From: a virus
Lineage: Duplodnaviria; Heunggongvirae; Uroviricota; Caudoviricetes
Reading direction: 5' to 3' (one strand)
IMG/VR virus record: IMGVR_UViG_2711768057_000005
Length of the DNA stretch: 24,533 bases
In this document: piece after piece, positions 2,341-19,783 of the stretch
Layout: every line of letters starts with the position of its first letter
Position numbering within the stretch: position 1 is the first letter of the stretch
Notes under the pieces: generated by a model
Told to the model about the DNA's origin: nothing
The model's database searches: none
What the model saw: the letters and a program-made list of their open reading frames with translations, nothing else
Translations under genes and position numbers: made by a program

Positions 2341-2432
2341 GGTACAGCTGGCCATTCGATAACCGCACTAAGGAAGTGCCAACACGACATCAGCAAGACC
2401 CGATATTTCTTCCATGCCGCCAGCAACGATGT
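2341..2432 (-). pseudogene. remnant of a second tail fibre assembly (tfa) gene 3' end
   Basis: Nucleotide similarity by eye between 2341-2432 and the 3' end of the intact tfa at 3030-3110 (shared GGCCATTC..CCCGATA.TTCTTCCA..CCAGCAACGA). The translation recovers a ..IEWPAVPVG-like C-terminus only across a frame break. Confidence 0.45.
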
Positions 2433-2902
2433 TAAGGTTAAATTAATTATAAAAAAATATATTATAATTCCATCTTCGCATTAAATTTTAACCTTTAATC
2501 TCCACACGGAACAAGTTGCATAGGTGACTATATTAAGAAAACTTATAACCACCAAAAAGATTTGCTTTGCAAGCAAAAACAGTGACCATTGACTCTAAGA
2601 AAATTCCGATCTATTGTTAGTGTCATCAAAGTTACTTAACAGTATTCCGAAATGAAAATACAAAGCAAGCTAATTGTCTTATTAAACATTATCATTGCAT
2701 TTATATTATTTGAGCTTTTAGCTCAAAAATTTGGTTTGAGTACATTATTTTAAAGCAAGATAAACAATATCGGGCACTCTAGTTTTTATAATTAACAATT
2801 AAACGCCCATAAAATGTTATTTACTTTTCTTCGCTATTGTCATATCTTAATATAGTGGCTTACGCCACTCTACTTTCATCATATTTTGTACGTTTATGTA
2901 CT

Positions 2903-2932
2903 CGCCATGAAGCTCTTTCATGGCGATTTTTT
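2903..2932 (+). terminator. intrinsic terminator-like hairpin (orphan)
   Basis: 9-bp perfect stem CGCCATGAA / TTCATGGCG with a 5-nt loop, followed by A then TTTTTT. No annotated plus-strand gene ends just upstream. Confidence 0.4.
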
Positions 2933-3018
2933 ATTCTTAATCCAAGAACATACTCCCTACCTATAGAAAAATCACTTTTTGAACAAAAGAATAACGTATT
3001 TAGGTAATCATTACGAAT

Positions 3019-3600
3019 TTACCCTATAGGTGCTACTGGCCATTCAATATCCGGTGCAGTTGTTGTATTAACACGGTTCAGCAACACCCGATACTTCTTC
3101 CAGGCTTCCAGCAACGAGATTTCTTCCTCCGTTGCAATTTCCAGATCTGCAGCATCCTGAAGCGGCGCAATATGCTCACTGGCTACCTGCATCAGGTTGT
3201 TTTTTGTTTCTTCCGCCTCCCGGATCCGGAACAGTTTTTCTGCTTCCGTATCCTTCACCCAGGCTGTGCCGTTCCACTTCTGATATTCCCCTTCCGGCGA
3301 TAACCAGGTGACATTTTCCGGTAACGAGCCAAGTTCAGAAATAAATAACGCGTCGCCGGAAGCCACGTCATAGACGGTTTTTCCCCGATGATCTTCAACG
3401 AGATGCCACGATGCCTCATCACTGTTGAAAACAGCCACAAAGCCAGCCGGAATATCTGGCGGTGCAATATCGGTACTGTTTGCTGGCAGACCTGTATGAG
3501 GCGGAATATATGCGTCACCTTCACCAATAAATTCATTAGTTCCGGCCAGCAGATTATAAATTTTTATGGTCCGTGGTTGTTCACTCATTCTGAATGCCAT
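3019..3600 (-). CDS. tfaQ: tail fibre assembly protein (Tfa)
   Basis: 193 aa beginning [24 protein letters not shown], the N-terminus I recall for TfaQ/TfaR/TfaE of E. coli cryptic prophages. Its start shares one base with the upstream fibre gene stop (TAATG). Confidence 0.8.
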
Positions 3601-5297
3601 TATGCAAGCCTCACAATATAGTTAAATGCGATGTTTTTGACGGTGTTTTCCGCGTTACCAGCAGCGTTAACGGTGATGGTGTGTCCATGTGAACCAATCG
3701 CAACGGAGTGCGTGTGTGCACCAATACCGACAGTATGTGCGTGTGCACCTGCAGATGCTGCTGTGCCGGACAGTGAGTGGCTATGGTTACCATCTGTACT
3801 GGTATTAGCTAACGCCCCCGTAGACATACCTACTGAGCCTTGTACACCCCAGGTATTTTGACCTGAGCTTGTATAACCATATTGATAAGTATCTTTAAAA
3901 ACACTGGGGTTAAATCGACGGCCATCTCTATGGCTGTGATTACCAGCTGCATTCGTGCTGCCACTTAAACTATGGGTATGCGCACCAGTGTTATTCGTGG
4001 ATTTAGTGCCGTAATCAAACGACGATGTGGTTTTCGTCCCCAAATCAGTACTGGATGCGCTGGCGCTGTGGGTATGCGATTTTATGCCGTCCTGTTCCTG
4101 AGACAATACGGCACGACCACTGGCGGGCTTGCCCTTAATCGTCCAGCCACGCATATCAGGGATCACGCCTGACGGATAAGCGGCTGCAAGTTTCGGGTAG
4201 GCAGATTTGTCAAAAGTCTGCCCCTGCATCAGGGCATAACCAGACGGAACGGTATCTGATGGCCACGGGATTGGTGCGCCGACTGGGTAGCTTTCTGGTG
4301 GAAGATTTTTCGAGGTATAAACTTCTGCCCAGTCTTCCTCAAAACCATAACCGTCTCTTGAAGAACGGTAGAACAGACCACCATTTCTGTAATGCGCCTT
4401 CATCTGCAAGGTCCGGCAACTTCCGACTCCGGTATAGAAGTTAACCAGAATATAGCTGTCGCCAGAGCGGGTGACATTATAAGCGCCTGATTCGGCATTC
4501 CAGGGAACGCCACCATCCGCATCGGCATATGTATCCGTTGCCCTTCTGGCAAAAGCAGCCACATGCGCGGCGGTTAAAGTAATATCTTTGGAACCATCAA
4601 ACTCAACACCAGAAACCCGTCTTGGCGTTTGCAGCTTTGTTGCTGTTAATGCATTACCGTTCAGACTTGCGGACAGTTTGGTTCCAATAACCAGTTCGCC
4701 GGTTGCGTTATCAATAGCAAACGGTCTTAATGTATTCCAGCCACCATAAACATCACCTTGATTGGTAAGCAGCAGGTAAGTTTTAGCGCCATCATTACGC
4801 CATAATGCCCCATACTCCCCACCTATCATTCGAATCTGATTACCACCACGCGCTACAATTTCGTCTGTGGCAAAAAGTTTTTTGCACGACAAGTTATCGT
4901 TAACGATTAATGAATGAGACTCATAAAAACCACGCCCACTCTTAAAATCAAGGATAACGTCCGCCGCGATACATTCAGTCGCCGGATTTGTTGCCCCAAA
5001 CTTATAGGTCGTATCATTAACAACGAGATCAGCACCAGGTGCGGATATTGACAGGCCATCTTCGATAAACGCAAAAACAGGGAAAGCAGCGCCATCAACA
5101 TAGAACACAGAGCGCAAATCATCGCCCTTATTACTCATCATTATTGAGTGGATGGCTCGTTCATTGTTTTGATATTGCCAGAACATTCCATAAGCATAAC
5201 GCCCCCTGTCAGTCCAGCCACCAGGCATAACAAATCCGTTATTCGAGCAACCCACCAGCGATATCAGCAGGAACAGGCAGATCACAGGTTTTTTCAC
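3600..5297 (-). CDS. side tail fibre C-terminal (receptor-binding) region with a lipoprotein-type N-terminus; probable fusion or truncation
   Basis: The C-terminal ~330 aa carry the lambda Stf / StfR-like tip ([21 protein letters not shown], repeated HTHS/HSHS histidine boxes, ending [11 protein letters not shown]). The N-terminus [18 protein letters not shown] looks like a signal peptide with lipobox; it starts at GTG 5297 and overlaps the Rz 3' end in the +1 frame. Confidence 0.6.
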
Positions 5298-5562
5298 GGC
5301 GGAGAATCTCCCGGTATTCGATTACGGTTTTTTCGGTGCTGGTGTCGATCAGGGAGTTAAGACTGTTGGCATGTTCTGCAACCTGATTGAATCGATTGAA
5401 GTTGAATGCCTGGGTGGCGATTACCTGCCCCAGCATAGAGTTGTCACTTCGCAGAACGTCGTTATCGCTCTGAAGATTACTGGCGTAAGAGCAACTCTTG
5501 ACGAGAGCGACCGAAAGGCCAGCAATAACGACAACGCCTATAAGATCCGGATTAATTTTCAT
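5239..5562 (-). CDS. Rz-like i-spanin
   Basis: Position immediately after the endolysin with an ATGA start/stop overlap at 5559-5562. N-terminal TM segment ([21 protein letters not shown]) then a hydrophilic periplasmic region. The track ORF has a 31-codon N-terminal extension that I trimmed. Confidence 0.65.
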
Positions 5563-6101
5563 TGCTCCAGCCCCCAGCACGCCAGTGCGCTTTCCTGATC
5601 GCGCCGCTCGACCTGCCCATAACAGCCATTCTTCTGCCCTTTTGTCAGGCGGCAATCACGCCCACCATCTTTTATCCACCAGCGAATCGCCTCGCATGCC
5701 CCCTTACGATCATCGGCATTCAGCCGCTTATAAAACGTCGACGGGAAACACTTACCGGGGCCAATGTTATAGGGACAAAATGACGCTATACCCGCTTTCT
5801 GTGGTTCGGTCAGTGGCACTTTAATATTGCGCTCCACCCATGCCAGCGCCTTATCCCGTTCAATGGCGTTAACCTGGTCGCATTTTTCCTTCGACAGTTT
5901 CATACCGGGAAAAACGGGTTTTCCATCCACCACCGTGGCACCCCGACAGATGGTCCAGATGCCGGAACCATCGCGGTATGCCGTTGTGTGGTTACCTTCT
6001 TTTTCATTCAGAAACTGGTCGAGAATATCAGGCGCAGGCGCACCGACGGCAATCAGTGCCAGAACGGCAGCCGACAGGCCGTATCTGATTTTTACGTTCA
6101 T
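5559..6101 (-). CDS. SAR endolysin, GH24 (T4/P21-type) lysozyme
   Basis: Catalytic E-x8-D-x5-T spacing in EGNHTTAYRDGSGIWT. Weakly hydrophobic Gly/Ala-rich N-terminus (LSAAVLALIAVGAPAP) typical of signal-anchor-release endolysins. Overall pattern resembles E. coli prophage RrrD/R21 lysozymes from memory. Confidence 0.85.
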   Translation of the reverse strand: MNVKIRYGLSAAVLALIAVGAPAPDILDQFLNEKEGNHTTAYRDGSGIWTICRGATVVDGKPVFPGMKLSKEKCDQVNAIERDKALAWVERNIKVPLTEPQKAGIASFCPYNIGPGKCFPSTFYKRLNADDRKGACEAIRWWIKDGGRDCRLTKGQKNGCYGQVERRDQESALACWGLEQ

Positions 6102-6206
6102 GGATTTTTATCAGGATTTATCGGTTTCTGAACCCTGGATATGTTTATCTGTCCCGGCCTGTTGAATCAGGCAAGGAATAGTTAAATACAATAGAGAGGA
6201 TTGTTT

Positions 6207-6479
6207 ATGGACAATAGCACCATTTCTCTACAGGAGTTGCTCGACTGCATTTCCAAGCTTCGGGATGATGTAAATGCCCTTACTGTCGCATTTTCATATC
6301 TGGCATTCTCAATTCCCAAGGAACAAATGCAACCAACACTGGCATCGCTCCAGCTTGAATCACTCAACCCCAAATGGTCCCAGCAACAACAAAATTCTTT
6401 CAAGTGGCTGGCGATATTACTGGAAGAAAAATATGCTGGTGAAATTACCATTTCGGCGGAGTCTTCAGAGAACCAGTAA
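6207..6479 (+). CDS. hypothetical protein (90 aa), opposite strand inside the lysis cassette
   Basis: ATG at 6207 with SD GAGAGGA (6194-6200). Hydrophilic, helical-looking product (MDNSTISLQELLDCISKLRDD...). Overlaps the 3' end of the minus-strand 6445..6789 gene by 35 nt. Confidence 0.4.
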   Translation: MDNSTISLQELLDCISKLRDDVNALTVAFSYLAFSIPKEQMQPTLASLQLESLNPKWSQQQQNSFKWLAILLEEKYAGEITISAESSENQ

Positions 6480-6789
6480 TTCTTCCCGGTAGCTTTCCTT
6501 TGTAGGTTATCCACACATTCTGCGCCTCTAAAATTATGGGGCGCTTTTCCGGCGACAGCTCATCCCCTTCACATAACCCGGCAGCAACATCCAGGAAGAC
6601 CTGTCTGATGCTCCTTCTGGCTGCTGCCTCATAAAACTCCAGCGCGGCACCTTCAACACGGTCCAGCGAGATGTCCAGGTCAAAAATTTCACCGTCAAAG
6701 CGTTCTTTGTCCCGTAACGCTAAAGTTACCGTAACTTTATTCTCAAAATTGCGGATCCCTTTCACAATCAGTTCATATTTTTGAGTCAT
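6445..6789 (-). CDS. hypothetical protein between holin and endolysin (YdfR-position)
   Basis: 114-aa ORF, ATG 6789 five nt after the holin stop. Sits where ydfR lies in Qin-type lysis cassettes; the sequence match is recalled only loosely. Confidence 0.55.
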   Translation of the reverse strand: MTQKYELIVKGIRNFENKVTVTLALRDKERFDGEIFDLDISLDRVEGAALEFYEAAARRSIRQVFLDVAAGLCEGDELSPEKRPIILEAQNVWITYKGKLPGRITGSLKTPPKW

Positions 6790-6793
6790 TGAA

Positions 6794-7009
6794 TTACTCT
6801 CCCCGTGCAGCCTTACGCTTGTCTTCTTTAATCTTGAAATAAAGGTTTGTCAGGTACGTCAGCAGGCCAAATACCAGGCTACCCAGCACACCTATTGCTG
6901 CCCACTGTGAGGGCGTGACTTTATCGAGCAGCTGTAAAAACCAGTAGCCAGCACTGCCTGCGGAGGTGCCGTAGGCAATGCCTGTTGAAATTTTGTCCAT
7001 GGATTTCAT
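6794..7009 (-). CDS. class II holin (pinholin S21-like) with dual-start motif
   Basis: 71-aa product [26 protein letters not shown]...[22 protein letters not shown], nearly identical to my memory of phage 21 S / EssD. Met1 and Met4 give the holin/antiholin dual start. The track ORF carries a 19-codon N-terminal extension that I trimmed. Confidence 0.85.
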
Positions 7010-7111
7010 AGCCTCACCTCCGCACGGAACGGATGGCATAGTTATTATGTGTAGGCTTCCAGACACATCAATCGGAGCCTTAATTGATATATATGCTGGA
7101 GACGATGCAAT

Positions 7112-7137
7112 ATAAAAAGCTCGCCGTAGCGAGCTAA
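7112..7137 (-). terminator. intrinsic terminator downstream of the lipoprotein pair
   Basis: Minus strand reads AGCTCGC-TACG-GCGAGCT followed by TTTTTATATT. Located between the lipoprotein gene end (7261) and the holin start (7009). Confidence 0.5.
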
Positions 7138-7260
7138 TAAAATGTATTTCTCTGATATTATGTTTATTTGTATTAGCTCAGACTTGACATCACAGGTTTC
7201 GTATATAGAACATCATCAAATCTGTCAGTTTGCTATGAATGAGATATAGTAATTGAAGAG

Positions 7261-7656
7261 CTAACCTCGCATGTCAAAGCCAGATTTCTGAAAATCTCTG
7301 TAGACTTCCGGATTGTTGAAGGCCGGAAATTTGGCTTTATGAGCTGCGGACTTTATCGCTTCGCAATAGGCTTTATCACCGTTACTGGTAGATATTTTTA
7401 ACGCCGTGCCATCCTGAGAGAATTCCATATGCAACCTGCATTTTTTCCCTTTCCAGTTATGCGGCTCATCAAGTTTGGCATTAATTGCAGCTCTGATTCC
7501 CCGCGCTTGCGCCCCCCATTCATCCTGATCATCCCAGCGTCCTGAACTGCAACTACCTGTAGCAGTAGTTTTGTGGCAATCTGAAGGGTGTAAAGGTGTG
7601 CATCCCGCAACAAAACCGACCCAAAAAGTCAACATAACGATTTTCTTTAATCCCAC
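7261..7656 (-). CDS. lipoprotein with TolA C-terminal (domain III)-like region, paralogue 1
   Basis: GTG 7656 with SD GAGGAG. Signal peptide plus lipobox (FVAGC). C-terminal KGKKCRLHMEFSQDG..GDKAYCEAIKSAAHKAKFPAFNNPEVYRDFQ matches the TolA domain-III pattern (C.L.....DG...GD...C.A...A.....P.....VY..F) more weakly than its neighbour. Confidence 0.7.
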   Translation of the reverse strand: MGLKKIVMLTFWVGFVAGCTPLHPSDCHKTTATGSCSSGRWDDQDEWGAQARGIRAAINAKLDEPHNWKGKKCRLHMEFSQDGTALKISTSNGDKAYCEAIKSAAHKAKFPAFNNPEVYRDFQKSGFDMRG

Positions 7657-7806
7657 TTCTTGCTCCTCAATCCATTAAAATCTCAGCAATAGTAGTTGTT
7701 ACGTCCGCCACTGGCTCAGAGCTGACTATCCGCTAGATTTAGCTCAGTGCCGTAGTTGTGTCAGAACAAACCTAAGCCGAAACCGTTTATTACAAAACAA
7801 TAAATA

Positions 7807-8235
7807 TCAGGGTTTAAAATCCAGCACCCCATTTTGAAATACTTTATATACTTCCGGCGAAGGGGGGGCAGGTATATCAGCATTCTTTATCGCATTCATC
7901 GCTTCACGACATAAATCGAGGTCTCCACTTTCTCTTTTAACCTCCAGTAGAAGGCCATTCGGGGCCATATGCATTCTCAGTGTACACTCTTTTCCTGAAT
8001 ACTTACTCGCATCCCCGAACTGTTTTTCGATGGCGCTCTTGATTTGATGGGCATACAGACGGATATCCTCACTAACATCAGAAGTACGTTCAGATGAACT
8101 CACATACTGTGTCTCTATTGCTTTATCGGAGTAATATGATGTACGGTCATGATAATTTGTCGATACAGCATCAGTGCACCCGATAATAATCCCACTAATA
8201 ATCAACGTAAGAATTGATGCGCTACGAAAACCCAT
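7807..8235 (-). CDS. lipoprotein with TolA C-terminal (domain III)-like region, paralogue 2
   Basis: ATG 8235 with SD GAGGA. Signal peptide plus lipobox (IIGC). C-terminal 85 aa (YAHQIKSAIEKQFGDASKYSGKECTLRMHMAPNGLLLEVK..GDLDLCREAMNAIKNADIPAPPSPEVYKVFQNGVLDFKP) closely resemble my recollection of the E. coli TolA C-terminus (..GQIKSAIESKF.DAS.Y.GK.CTLR...APDG.LL.IK...GD..LC.......K.A.IP.PPS..VY.VF.N..LDFKP). Confidence 0.8.
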   Translation of the reverse strand: MGFRSASILTLIISGIIIGCTDAVSTNYHDRTSYYSDKAIETQYVSSSERTSDVSEDIRLYAHQIKSAIEKQFGDASKYSGKECTLRMHMAPNGLLLEVKRESGDLDLCREAMNAIKNADIPAPPSPEVYKVFQNGVLDFKP

Positions 8236-8264
8236 TTTTCCTCACATATGTCATATAGTAAAGG

Positions 8265-8294
8265 ATTATATATACCGTTGTTTTGGACGCTCAA
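8265..8294 (-). promoter_or_regulatory. candidate sigma70 promoter for the lipoprotein pair
   Basis: On the minus strand TTGAGC, an 18-nt spacer, then TATAAT, ending about 30 nt upstream of the 8235 start. Pattern only. Confidence 0.3.
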
Positions 8295-8768
8295 ACAGCG
8301 AATCAGATCAAATAAAACGCACATTTGTTAACATTTACACAAAGTCTGCGTGGGATATTCTGAAAGAATATCCATAATGTGGAGAGAATCTATTGAAGTG
8401 CATGGTGCCGGGGGCCTCCCGGTGAATTCAGTACCAGCACCTGAATCCACGATTATCCCATATACCTACTCGCTGATTGCCCCTCCGCACAGGGGGATTC
8501 ACCATGCCAGTTTCTTTTAACAAACTCCCCGCAAACCAGAGAACAGTCAACCGCCTGAATTGTGAAGTATTTAAAAATTTCTCCCGCTAACTGATACCCG
8601 GCTAACAGTCTGGCGTTTTCTTTTTCAGCAACGGGAAAGCAACAACTACCACACCCGCCACCAGCACACCGTCAGCCAGCACTGACATTATCCGGCTGCT
8701 GCAATGCCATTCACAAAAACAGTAAGCAATCACTTTTTACCGTAACAGGTGATAATCCAGATATGTAT

Positions 8769-9122
8769 CTACCCCAGATGAGTAATCCGAAGTTCATCCA
8801 TACCACAGGTCCTGGCTATTCTGTTGTACTCCTGAACAAGAGCAAATAATTCTGAATTAGCAACCATGAACTCATCGCAAACCCTCTGTATAGCATCACT
8901 ATTCAGAATAATAACGTCTCTTCCCGAAAGACGATCAGGAGCACAGAACAAAACTGTCAAACGGCTGAAGGCCTTTGCTCGTGCTGCATTGACTATATCA
9001 ATACGCTGCCTAAGGATGAAACACCCCGACGCCTCATCAATATTCACTCTACCCACACCATATGAATGATAAATATTTAATGCTGAAAAAACCATTAGAC
9101 CGTATAACAAACACTCAATCAA
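8769..9122 (-). CDS. hypothetical protein (weak call)
   Basis: 117-aa ORF. The 9122 start is TTG without a clear SD; an ATG at 9095 is also possible. No family recognised. Confidence 0.3.
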   Translation of the reverse strand: MIECLLYGLMVFSALNIYHSYGVGRVNIDEASGCFILRQRIDIVNAARAKAFSRLTVLFCAPDRLSGRDVIILNSDAIQRVCDEFMVANSELFALVQEYNRIARTCGMDELRITHLG

Positions 9123-9232
9123 TACTTAACAGAACTTTTATTTTTGACAAACATATAATGTTTTCAACAATATCCTGAGCCAGGTATATTCCAGTATAAG
9201 GCTCTGCCGGAAGGAATCTGGAAGAATGAATA

Positions 9233-9309
9233 TGGCGCGCTGTACTGGATTCGAACCAGTGACCGATTGCTTAGAAGGCAATTGCTCTGTCCGGCTGAGC
9301 TAACAACGC
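9233..9309 (-). tRNA. tRNA-Arg (anticodon UCU)
   Basis: Hand-folded cloverleaf: acceptor GCGTTGT/ACAGCGC, D-stem GCTC/GAGC, anticodon stem ATTGC/GCAAT, loop CTTCTAA, T-arm ACTGG-TTCGAAT-CCAGT, discriminator G, CCA. Same position as argN/argO in lambdoid phages. Confidence 0.85.
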
Positions 9310-9343
9310 TGAATACCGATAATGGACCGCCATCGGGGACCCG

Positions 9344-9355
9344 CCCCCCCCCCCC
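9344..9355. repeat. C12 homopolymer (G12 on the transcribed strand) in the inter-tRNA spacer
   Basis: Twelve consecutive C between the two tRNA genes. Confidence 0.9.
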
Positions 9356-9416
9356 GCACCAACAACCCTGTTATCGTGTCGTCTGCTCTTCCTGATAAGC
9401 TCATGGCGGTTTGTGA

Positions 9417-9492
9417 TGGTGGCCCTTGCTGGATTTGAACCAGCGACCTGGCGATTATGAGTCGCTCGCTCTCACCACTGAGCTAAAGGACC
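9417..9492 (-). tRNA. tRNA with CAU anticodon, ileX/ileZ-like (tRNA-Ile2, lysidine-type) rather than Met
   Basis: Hand-folded: acceptor GGTCCTT/AAGGGCC, D-stem GCTC/GAGC, loop CTCATAA, T-arm GCTGG-TTCAAAT-CCAGC, discriminator A, CCA. The 3' half is nearly identical to my memory of E. coli ileX. Confidence 0.8.
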
Positions 9493-9527
9493 GGGAGCAG
9501 AATAATAACGGTCCGTAATTAATTCCG

Positions 9528-9556
9528 CAATAAAAAACCCGCTCGGTGGCGGGTTG
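9528..9556 (-). terminator. intrinsic terminator, candidate tR' downstream of Q
   Basis: Minus strand reads AACCCGC-CACCGA-GCGGGTT followed by TTTTTTATT, about 80 nt after the Q stop codon. Confidence 0.6.
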
Positions 9557-9602
9557 TAGAAACTCTTCTAACGTCAGGTATAAAAAGCCCATCTTTATGA
9601 CG

Positions 9603-9630
9603 AATTTACCACAGATTCCGGAAAAATCAA
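9603..9630 (-). promoter_or_regulatory. candidate late promoter pR' (with qut region)
   Basis: Minus strand TTGATT, 16-nt spacer, TAAATT, starting just after the Q stop. A start here would give a roughly 55-60 nt transcript ending at the terminator at 9528-9556, analogous to lambda 6S RNA. Confidence 0.4.
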
Positions 9631-9635
9631 CCTTG

Positions 9636-10457
9636 TTACCTAGTTACCTTTTTTAACTGCCGCTCAGCCCATGCTTCTTCAATATCAAACCGGGTCACCA
9701 GCGCATCATAGAATTTCTTAACTGTTTTTTCCCATGACGCGCGTGTTATCTGGTTTGTCACCTCGCATATAGCATTAAATGCCTCCGTTGATGGTAGTCT
9801 TTCATAGCCACGACCACCACAACGCTGGCAGTCTCTGATAACAGGCATACCACGTTTTACCGACTCTTCACGGTGAATGGCGACACCACGCCCACGGCAA
9901 TCCTTACAGGCGGTGGAAACCTCACCCTTTCCGCCACACTCCGGACAGGCAACTTTTACCACCTCCCTGACTTTTTTCCATTCTTCCCAGTAAGACGGAT
10001 ACACACCTTTCGTACACTTTGCCCATACCGGCGGCTTACCATCCGGATACTGGACCTTGTTTGTAAAAACTACGCTTTCAATAAATTTTTCCCCATAGCA
10101 ACAAGGGCACTGCTTTTTACTCGCTGCGCTGCGGGCATAATCCTCAAAAGCGTACGAAGCCATAATGCGCATCACTAACGGTTTTATTTCTGCCGGAAGT
10201 TTTCTCAACGCCGCCACACGATCGCACCGACTGAGTGCATAATCTGCCAGTAATTCTGTTGCCCGCGCCCTGTCATTCATACTGATGCCCATTTTCCCCA
10301 GGAACGCAGAAAACCCCATCTCAGCCCGATTCTGTGTCATGCCCTGCGCGGCCATCACATCAGTGATACTCAGCGCATCTTTTGACGTTGAGGCCGATGC
10401 ATCGGTCAGGCAAGGGGATTTTGGGGAGTAGTATTTCGGTAAATCTTCCAGTTTCAT
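9636..10457 (-). CDS. late-gene antiterminator Q-like protein
   Basis: 273 aa in the position between rusA and the pR'/tRNA/lysis region. Three zinc-ribbon-like motifs (CPECGGKGE, CKDCRGRG, CQRCGGRG). ATGA overlap with the rusA stop. Confidence 0.6.
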   Translation of the reverse strand: MKLEDLPKYYSPKSPCLTDASASTSKDALSITDVMAAQGMTQNRAEMGFSAFLGKMGISMNDRARATELLADYALSRCDRVAALRKLPAEIKPLVMRIMASYAFEDYARSAASKKQCPCCYGEKFIESVVFTNKVQYPDGKPPVWAKCTKGVYPSYWEEWKKVREVVKVACPECGGKGEVSTACKDCRGRGVAIHREESVKRGMPVIRDCQRCGGRGYERLPSTEAFNAICEVTNQITRASWEKTVKKFYDALVTRFDIEEAWAERQLKKVTR

Positions 10458-12628: not shown

Positions 12629-12784
12629 TTACTCCTCAGGTTCGTAAGCTGTGAAGACAGCGACCTCCGTCTGGCCGGTTCGGAGTCGTACCTCGCAGAG
12701 GTCTTTCCTCGTTACCAGTGCCGTCACTATGACGGTTAAACAGATGACGATCAGGGCGATTAACATCGCCTTTTGCTGCTTCAT
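12629..12784 (-). CDS. hokD: Hok-family type I toxin (HokD/RelF-like)
   Basis: 51-aa product MKQQKAMLIALIVICLTVIVTALVTRKDLCEVRLRTGQTEVAVFTAYEPEE matches my memory of HokD almost residue for residue. SD AAGGAG upstream. The track ORF has a 19-codon in-frame extension. No relBE genes are upstream here. Confidence 0.85.
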   Translation of the reverse strand: MKQQKAMLIALIVICLTVIVTALVTRKDLCEVRLRTGQTEVAVFTAYEPEE

Positions 12785-13401
12785 AGCCTGCTTCTCCTTG
12801 CCTTTCGGCACGTAAGAGGCTAACCTACATGTGTCTAGCATGAAATTGGCCTCAGATTAATGTTAAGCGTCTTGCAGGACGCGTAATGTTAACTGGGGCT
12901 TTTCTCTATCTGCCTTTGGTGTTCATGCCTGAGGCAGATAGCCTCAAGCACCCGCAGCAATTCTACTTAACTCACGTCACCTCGCCAATATAAAATCAAT
13001 CAGAAAGGCGATCCGTAAGAACAACAGCAAGACAATAAATTGCCATTACAGCCGCAATAGCTAGCGCACATTTGAGAACCAGCACGACAACCTCCTGTAT
13101 TGGACGTACACCAGTCCTGATAAATATGAGGCTGTCTCATCATTGATTCAATATAACTATTGGGTATAGTTTCTGTGATTTTGTTCTGTAGAAATGGAAC
13201 ACAACAACCAGTCACCACCAGCACTTCTTTAAATACGCCAAGTCCGACGCAAGCTAACCTTCTAGTCCGCTTTGAGCGATCTGTAGACATTGCTAGCAGC
13301 CTTCTGTGTGAATTCTCAGGGAGCAGGTCGGCATAGCATCACGTTGAGGCTCTTACCCTACTTGTTGACACCAACCCTAACTCCACAGACTGATTCATAA
13401 A

Positions 13402-19725: not shown

Positions 19726-19783
19726 TTTCTGGTGACGTTTGGCGGTATCAGTTTTACTCCGTGACTGCTCTGCCGCCCTTTTT
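19726..19783 (+). ncRNA. dicF: DicF small RNA (ftsZ-targeting Hfq sRNA) with intrinsic terminator
   Basis: TTTCTGGTGACGTTTGGCGGTATCAGTTTTACTCCGTGACTGCTCTGCCGCCCTTTTT matches the DicF sequence as I remember it, including the GGCGG/CCGCC terminator stem and U-tail. Lies between ydfC and dicB, preceded by about 340 nt of structured non-coding leader. Confidence 0.8.

Follow-up and report, generated by a model that had tools for sequence, protein, structure and literature searches.

Embedded Rz/Rz1 spanin genes lie downstream of the phage endolysin gene. The i-spanin Rz is characterized by an N-terminal transmembrane domain (TMD) followed by a full-length periplasmic domain, and the o-spanin Rz1 by a lipobox, an overlapping out-of-frame position and a short proline-rich mature domain. 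The o-spanin lipobox follows the pattern [LVI][ASTVI][GAS]C, and a start at 0.49 of the length (L) of Rz is a typical position for an embedded Rz1 (PMC6139136). In phage lambda, all nonsense truncations of Rz except loss of the last residue abolish lysis, as do Rz1 nonsense mutations up to W46 (PMC5295617).

Lambda-type side tail fibres (Stf) with a T4 gp37-like tip, such as those of phages PhiR34_1 (XSB42368.1), Kati and mEp332, possess an N-terminal half that serves tail attachment and a C-terminal receptor-binding tip, and their gene is followed by tfa. Fibre remnants are also found in the cryptic prophages Qin, DLP12, Rac and e14 of E. coli K-12, in which internal deletions spared lysis genes and stf/tfa remnants. 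One of them, the chimeric Stf remnant StfE2 of prophage e14, was reported to block adsorption of phage T2 (PMC12529663). It is a small and experimentally supported protein without signal peptide, made from the 3' part of a cryptic-prophage stf and reversible through Pin-mediated inversion (PMC12529663).

The whole stretch of DNA analysed here (24,533 nucleotides, hereafter the window) is a single complete defective Qin-type lambdoid prophage inserted in E. coli ydfJ. Its gene order begins with int, xis, an exonuclease gene, ydfD, dicB, DicF, ydfABC, a repressor/cro pair and hokD/sok. It continues with a DUF968 gene, rusA, Q, two tRNA genes, two genes for lipoproteins with a TolA C-terminal domain, the holin gene essD and ydfR, and it ends with a lysozyme gene, an Rz fragment, a fibre ORF, tfaQ and a 3' fragment of ydfJ. 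Terminase, head and tail genes were found nowhere in the 24.5 kb. With K-12 Qin the prophage shares the ydfJ site as well as dicB, DicF, hokD/sok, Q, essD, ydfR, rrrQ and tfaQ and, as in the K-12 cryptic prophages, the morphogenesis module is gone and a fibre tip with its tfa gene has been kept. Unlike in Qin, however, the breakpoints are located elsewhere, and the deletion begins within Rz/Rz1, ends within stf and by chance created an in-frame chimera.

In the late/lysis operon of the window, the holin and endolysin genes are still intact. The endolysin, an RrrQ-type lysozyme (5559..6101, minus strand; Pfam Phage_lysozyme, E 1e-23; RefSeq WP_001101168.1 'lysozyme/rrrQ'), is encoded directly upstream of the Rz fragment. 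The ORF in the Rz frame opens straight after the lysozyme gene with ATG 5562 and closes with a TAA at 5241..5239. A first, sequence-only reading of this DNA had taken 5239..5562 (minus strand) for the Rz gene; the identity as Rz stands, with a match to phrog_214 'Rz-like spanin', but the gene is not complete. The match is restricted to profile positions 14-113 of 176, the alignments to Rz of phage mEp237 (171 aa) and of the E. coli OkiPb01681 prophage (WP_242813147.1, 178 aa) both stop at position 5240, and the fragment is also a pseudogene in the PGAP annotation. This truncated i-spanin gene, Rz', comprises codons 1-107 of 178: its N-terminal TMD and the beginning of the periplasmic domain are retained and the C-terminal 71 residues are gone, so that the full-length periplasmic domain of an i-spanin is absent.

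The o-spanin side was examined in the same relatives. The Rz side of the window shares 92% identity with the mEp237 lysis cassette, in which Rz (F852_gp59, 'Rz-like spanin') contains an unannotated Pro-rich lipoprotein of 48 aa embedded in the +1 frame. Judging by its sequence, this lipoprotein is a classical embedded o-spanin. The embedded Rz1 of OkiPb01681 is also 48 aa long, with 8 Pro among its 32 mature residues. Native Rz1 starts at 0.49 L of Rz and matches phrog_456 'Rz-like spanin', while its match to Pfam LysC is weak. In the window, an Rz1' remnant is present at 5241..5297 (minus strand), with the GTG start and codons 1-19 identical to those of OkiPb01681 Rz1, and near-identical to Rz1 of mEp237 and Flotzy. 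It consists of the full lipoprotein signal peptide with LVGC and of just Cys-Ser-Asn of the mature o-spanin. The remainder of the Pro-rich mature domain, 29 of the 32 mature residues, is lost and Stf sequence follows from residue 20.

The retained parts of Rz' and Rz1' are thus those of embedded spanins: they are 92-100% identical at the nucleotide level to mEp237/OkiPb01681, Rz' lies directly downstream of the endolysin gene and has its N-terminal TMD, and Rz1' has its GTG start in the +1 frame at 0.49 L and its LVGC. Unlike in functional pairs, Rz1' reads into foreign sequence and no periplasm-spanning complex is possible. With Rz shortened by 40% of its length and Rz1 by nearly all of its mature part, the spanin would be non-functional. 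The sequence-only reading had supposed that spanin function may be compromised, and truncation of both Rz and Rz1 supports this more strongly than was claimed.

The ORF that opens with the Rz1 signal is 565 codons long plus stop (3600..5297, minus strand; GTG start, TAA end in the ORF listing). Relative to Rz, its start codon GTG 5297 falls in the +1 frame, as 5562-5297 = 265. The encoded N-terminus conforms to the lipoprotein rule PROSITE PS51257: it has an LVGC lipobox with Cys17, a K/R within the first seven residues and an h-region without charge. Since this lipobox was inherited from Rz1, which is intact in relatives, it is not a chance match. A scan of all three frames over 5100..5750 (minus strand) returned GTG 5297 as the sole lipobox-bearing start, and therefore no separate Rz1 exists in this region, in line with the first reading, which had identified none. 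A Shine-Dalgarno-like GGGAGA is located 9 nt upstream of the GTG (5307..5312, minus strand), and the identical sequence precedes the intact mEp237 Rz1. To judge from this identity, GGGAGA is the native Rz1 translation signal, retained in the window.

Past residue 19, the chimera is a side tail fibre. The stf remnant (3600..5240, minus strand) represents codons 587-1132 of a 1132-aa Stf, identical to that of OkiPb01681 at 546 of 546 aa, and corresponds to residues 589-1134 of PhiR34_1 Stf. At the nucleotide level, the fibre side shares 99% identity with the 3'-terminal 1.64 kb of PhiR34_1 stf, a gene of 1134 codons, and the first 640 nt of the fibre side show 99.2-99.8% identity to six other viable phages. 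Pfam domains were found along the chimera (Gp34_trimer at aa 96-195, gp37_C at 260-329, Collar at 340-387, and Phage_fiber), together with matches to PHROG tail-fibre families, and aa 335-565 match the structure of the T4 gp37 receptor-binding tip (2XGF, E 3e-85). The remnant therefore holds gp34-like trimerisation, gp37_C-like and collar domains and a T4 gp37-like needle tip with HxH repeats. It is followed, with a 1-nt TAATG overlap, by the intact gene of the tail-fibre assembly chaperone tfaQ (3019..3600, minus strand; Pfam Caudo_TAP, E 3e-42; RefSeq WP_001593356.1). All of this agrees with the earlier description of an ORF that starts with a lipoprotein signal in the +1 frame of Rz, continues for 565 codons into an Stf-like tip and is followed by tfa.

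In its C-terminal 546 residues, the chimera is identical or 99% identical to the Stf of PhiR34_1, Kati and mEp332, and the downstream tfa is shared as well. It differs from them by the absence of their N-terminal 586-588 residues, including the 'prophage tail fiber N-terminal domain', in place of which stands a lipoprotein signal peptide, and by residing in a prophage without tail genes. In sum, a receptor-binding tip and tfa are present and the attachment domain and tail are not. On the o-spanin side, the lipobox and the overlapping out-of-frame position downstream of the endolysin gene are present and the short Pro-rich mature domain is not. By these defining features, the chimera is a functional member of neither the spanin nor the fibre family.

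The two parts meet at a sharp boundary. In pairwise alignments with mEp237 and PhiR34_1, Rz/Rz1 homology extends down to position 5240 and stf homology begins at 5241, and a TA dinucleotide is common to both parents at the junction. The undeleted parental arrangement is found in the prophage of E. coli OkiPb01681, which keeps its morphogenesis genes and has the same accessions as the window for lysozyme, YdfR, EssD, both TolA-like proteins and TfaQ. In the interval from lysozyme to tfaQ, this prophage carries Rz with its embedded Rz1, a hypothetical gene, DUF1441 and large terminase genes, followed by portal, a ClpP/capsid fusion, tail genes and tape measure, and finally L, K, I, J, lom and the gene of the 1132-aa Stf. 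The window is ~99.96% identical to it at the nucleotide level on both flanks. Taking exactly 22,605 bp out of the OkiPb01681 prophage regenerates window positions 5140..5341 perfectly, base by base, in three equivalent registers that amount to a microhomology of 2 bp (TA on the gene strand, 5240..5241). A 5-bp microhomology (5237-5241) indicated by BLAST against OkiPb01681 was rejected as a gapped-extension artefact, the ungapped value being 2 bp. At the protein level, residues 1-19 of the fusion are Rz1 1-19 and residues 20-565 are Stf 587-1132 of OkiPb01681, with no stop codon between the two parts. The N-terminus is hence no normal fibre domain: it is a true Rz1 signal, and from residue 20 onward an internal fibre segment. 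The Rz stop was made by the junction itself, which turned the parental GAA TAC into GAA TAA.

The 565-codon ORF is therefore, in all probability, the scar of a single 22,605-bp deletion and an ordinary decaying pseudogene. Of the two readings offered earlier, a deletion that fused Rz1 in frame to an stf remnant and a genuine lipid-anchored fibre-like protein, the former is borne out by the excision from OkiPb01681. Both parts are truncated, one deletion accounts for the junction, and the reading frame is not conserved among carriers. The mechanism is one event of illegitimate recombination between two TA dinucleotides. It removed the last 40% of Rz at the 3' end, the embedded Rz1 past codon 19 and the small hypothetical gene, and along with them the whole packaging, head and tail module (from the DUF1441 small terminase through J), lom and stf codons 1-586. 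The join fell in the Rz1 frame, so that the GTG, Shine-Dalgarno sequence and signal peptide of Rz1 are now read into Stf 587-1132, and the Rz frame runs into the TAA made by the junction. What presumably remains is a spanin pair without function, together with a chimeric pseudogene that has no demonstrable role.

That the join gave a long open frame is no surprise. Of the three frames at the left breakpoint, those of Rz and Rz1 are coding, and in the stf frame no stop occurs before the natural one. Because of this overlap, a long in-frame chimera is likely to arise by chance, in about two thirds of such joins, and the chance that it starts with the Rz1 signal is about one third. By the same reasoning, in-frame chimeras are to be expected from deletions that end in spanin genes.

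The distribution of the junction was followed in 5426 complete E. coli genomes. It is present in ~58 of them, and ~547 further genomes carry the same stf 3' part within a full-length gene, with alignments that start exactly at the equivalent of window position 5241; an intact Rz of this family was found in 131 genomes. The junction 40-mer is identical in 10 of 10 carriers inspected, which argues for a single deletion event. Across the 1963-nt query, 45 copies are 100% identical to the window. The chimeric ORF is intact in ~52 of the ~58 carriers and broken in at least six. The disruptions include two IS insertions, one of ISVsa5 (target duplication of 9 bp) and one of an IS3-family element (target duplication of 3 bp), a +1 frameshift (TT>TTT) at nt 114 of the ORF common to two strains, and a W323* nonsense codon in strain I2; a further copy shows seven indels that may be sequencing errors. 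Strains 2017.06.05CC and CUPS TF 6/1_01 are the IS-disrupted ones, and KSC9 and ZH48 are further carriers.

Other changes are few. In one strain (given as L009 / L3Cip3), eight substitutions lie within ~100 nt of the chimeric ORF. They cause a single amino-acid change, and purifying selection was considered on this account and rejected, as they are clustered at nt 1483-1584, which points to a recombination patch from another stf allele. Outside this patch the sole non-disruptive change is one missense, G200S, and no isolated synonymous changes were present in the chimeric ORF among the carriers examined. The pattern is that of a young, unconstrained sequence, with counts too small for a formal test and a diversity too low to measure selection. 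The chimera would thus be open in most carriers because it is recent, most copies being 100% identical, and in the others it would have been knocked out at random. It is probably without function.

What survives best among the alternatives, at a very low probability, is an exapted outer-membrane lipoprotein that would show a gp37-like receptor-binding tip and would mask receptors or exclude superinfecting phages on late-operon transcription. A Ser at position +2 of a lipoprotein leads to outer-membrane sorting, and the chimera retains this residue together with the Shine-Dalgarno sequence, the GTG and a PROSITE-conforming lipobox. As read from these signals, transcription of the late operon could lead to translation of the chimera from the Rz1 start, as a product of ~58 kDa, and to its entry into the Sec/Lgt/LspA pathway, and once lipidated it would presumably go to the outer membrane. 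A promoter and terminator consensus scan of 2400..9800 was uninformative, with promoter-like sites at background level (16 vs 14.7 expected from shuffles) and no convincing terminator between the lysozyme gene and the fusion ORF. The gene of the cognate chaperone, tfaQ, is still downstream, and most carriers have kept the ORF open. In addition, Llp and Cor are examples of phage lipoproteins that inactivate a receptor.

Against exaptation, there is just one junction, recent in origin and almost clonal, and at least five independent disruptive events have struck the ORF in ~58 carriers that show no isolated synonymous changes. An in-frame fusion is also to be expected by chance (one third for the Rz1 frame). 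No independent fusion of a signal to Stf was found either: a protein-collection search with the first 151 aa returned only ordinary Stf, although its sensitivity was limited, the fusion itself being hidden in a 90% cluster of Stf proteins. Upstream of NGFVMPGGW, the relatives have ordinary Stf sequence (...TRTAGDPMNNCEF) and none has a signal peptide. Moreover, trimerisation normally needs cytoplasmic Tfa, whereas for a Sec-exported form folding would take place in the periplasm, where Tfa is absent, and a tip facing the periplasm would not reach the surface loops to which such tips bind. As the attachment half of Stf is missing and trimerisation would take place in the periplasm, away from cytoplasmic Tfa, the product is expected to be unstable or inert.

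Slightly less probable still is the specific scenario in which Q-dependent late transcription would yield an exported, lipidated gp37-like tip that interferes with a receptor (porin or LPS), with the effect that other phages adsorb less. If true, the chimera would be an accidental exclusion factor of the Llp/Cor or StfE2 kind, born of a deletion. The adsorption block claimed for StfE2 is a precedent for such a role and indicates that Stf remnants are not always inert, and for this reason a small probability is kept for an exapted function (PMC12529663). Like the chimera, StfE2 derives from the 3' part of a cryptic-prophage stf; unlike the product of that inversion system, the chimera stems from an irreversible deletion and is known from sequence alone.

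It is even less likely that the junction arose by recombination between two prophages of one chromosome, with the lysis cassette coming from one and stf-tfa from the other. Such an exchange would suit the mosaic nature of lambdoid prophages, the presence of the stf tip in the ~547 further genomes and several viable phages, and the difference between the 3' ends of the mEp237 and OkiPb01681 Rz genes. Yet both flanks of the window are nearly identical to one contiguous prophage, that of OkiPb01681, and agree with it in gene order and orientation; one excision gives the junction exactly, and the 2 bp of homology there exclude a homologous exchange. Finally, an assembly or sequencing artefact, such as a false join of the two parts or an overlooked stop or frameshift between them, is by far the least credible explanation, as nothing was found in its support and the same junction with an open frame recurs in dozens of complete genomes sequenced independently by various laboratories from various hosts and countries, and the exact protein on hundreds of contigs.

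With the single deletion as the preferred origin, the locus matters mainly for annotation. The feature is already known as pseudogenes: in RefSeq/PGAP, 5242..5562 is listed as a pseudogene 'missing C-terminus', while the tail-fibre pseudogene at 3600..5249 bears the label 'missing N-terminus', and this correct split into two fragments was seen in all carriers inspected, with the exception of strain CUPS TF 6/1_01. The exact 565-aa product is also deposited in GenBank (ANW31898.1 and others, on 574 contigs) under the names 'tail fiber protein' or 'hypothetical protein', and the 'tail fiber protein' is in fact a chimera of two truncated genes. Were it expressed, which nothing found here suggests, the chimera would be a natural experiment in the export of a fibre tip to the envelope. 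Viable phages have an stf tip and a tfaQ with 99-100% identity to those retained here, and the remnant is therefore a plausible recombination reservoir for host-range modules.

The stf remnant of the dead prophage (3600-5241, minus strand) and the adjoining tail-fibre assembly chaperone gene tfaQ share 99.2-99.8% identity with fibre tips from viable phages, namely mEp332, Kati, PhiR34_1, Chlobot, 2H10 and ev099 (phage locus L003 and search matches H41-H49). This fits the view of cryptic prophages as a reservoir of host-range modules or as a partner in their exchange. The Rfam family IS009 (RF02111) also matched at 3059-3257 (minus strand; 225 bits, full model covered). As this full-model match falls entirely within the tfaQ coding sequence, the IS009 'sRNA' family apparently represents the 3' half of tfa genes.

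Immediately downstream of tfaQ lies an AT-rich segment of 430 bp (2569-2998) that is missing from the undeleted OkiPb01681 prophage, although the two are otherwise about 99.9% identical. On the plus strand, it contains a hydrophobic ORF of 33 codons (about 2651-2752; MKIQSKLIVLLNIIIAFILFELLAQKFGLSTLF) as well as a strong terminator-like hairpin (2902-2926). A Pfam search of the ORF gave no match; its predicted product resembles a type I toxin.

Annotation by PGAP of the chimera of Rz1 and stf is inconsistent across the genomes that carry it. In strain CUPS TF 6/1_01 (locus L006, NZ_CP180632.1, 566-2137), the GTG-start chimera is cut short by an IS3 insertion and is annotated as an ordinary CDS, 'tail fiber protein' WP_416046289.1, while in all other carriers inspected it appears as two pseudogene fragments.

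Two adjoining minus-strand ORFs (7261-7656 and 7807-8235) are located in the late region, with tRNAs on one side and the holin gene on the other. In each, a lipoprotein-type signal (...FVAGC or ...IIGC) is joined to the C-terminal domain of TolA (Pfam PF06519; E-values 1e-14 and 2e-23). The names given by PGAP are 'TolA' and 'TolA C-terminal domain-containing protein'. It is possible that the prophage encodes them as lipid-anchored TolA-III decoys, directed against filamentous phages or against colicins that depend on Tol.

A further ORF of 92 codons (6201-6479, plus strand; conserved hypothetical protein, RefSeq WP_001593363.1) runs antisense to the 3' end of ydfR and to the ydfR-lysozyme spacer, and it is kept in deleted and undeleted prophages alike. 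The RNA genes of the prophage include STnc100 (8346-8536, minus), sok adjoining hokD (12779-12953, minus), DicF (19727-19778, plus) and tRNA-Arg(TCT) (9233-9309, minus). Finally, a tRNA with a CAT anticodon (9417-9492, minus) is called Met by ARAGORN but Ile by PGAP, and it is therefore presumably lysidine-modified.
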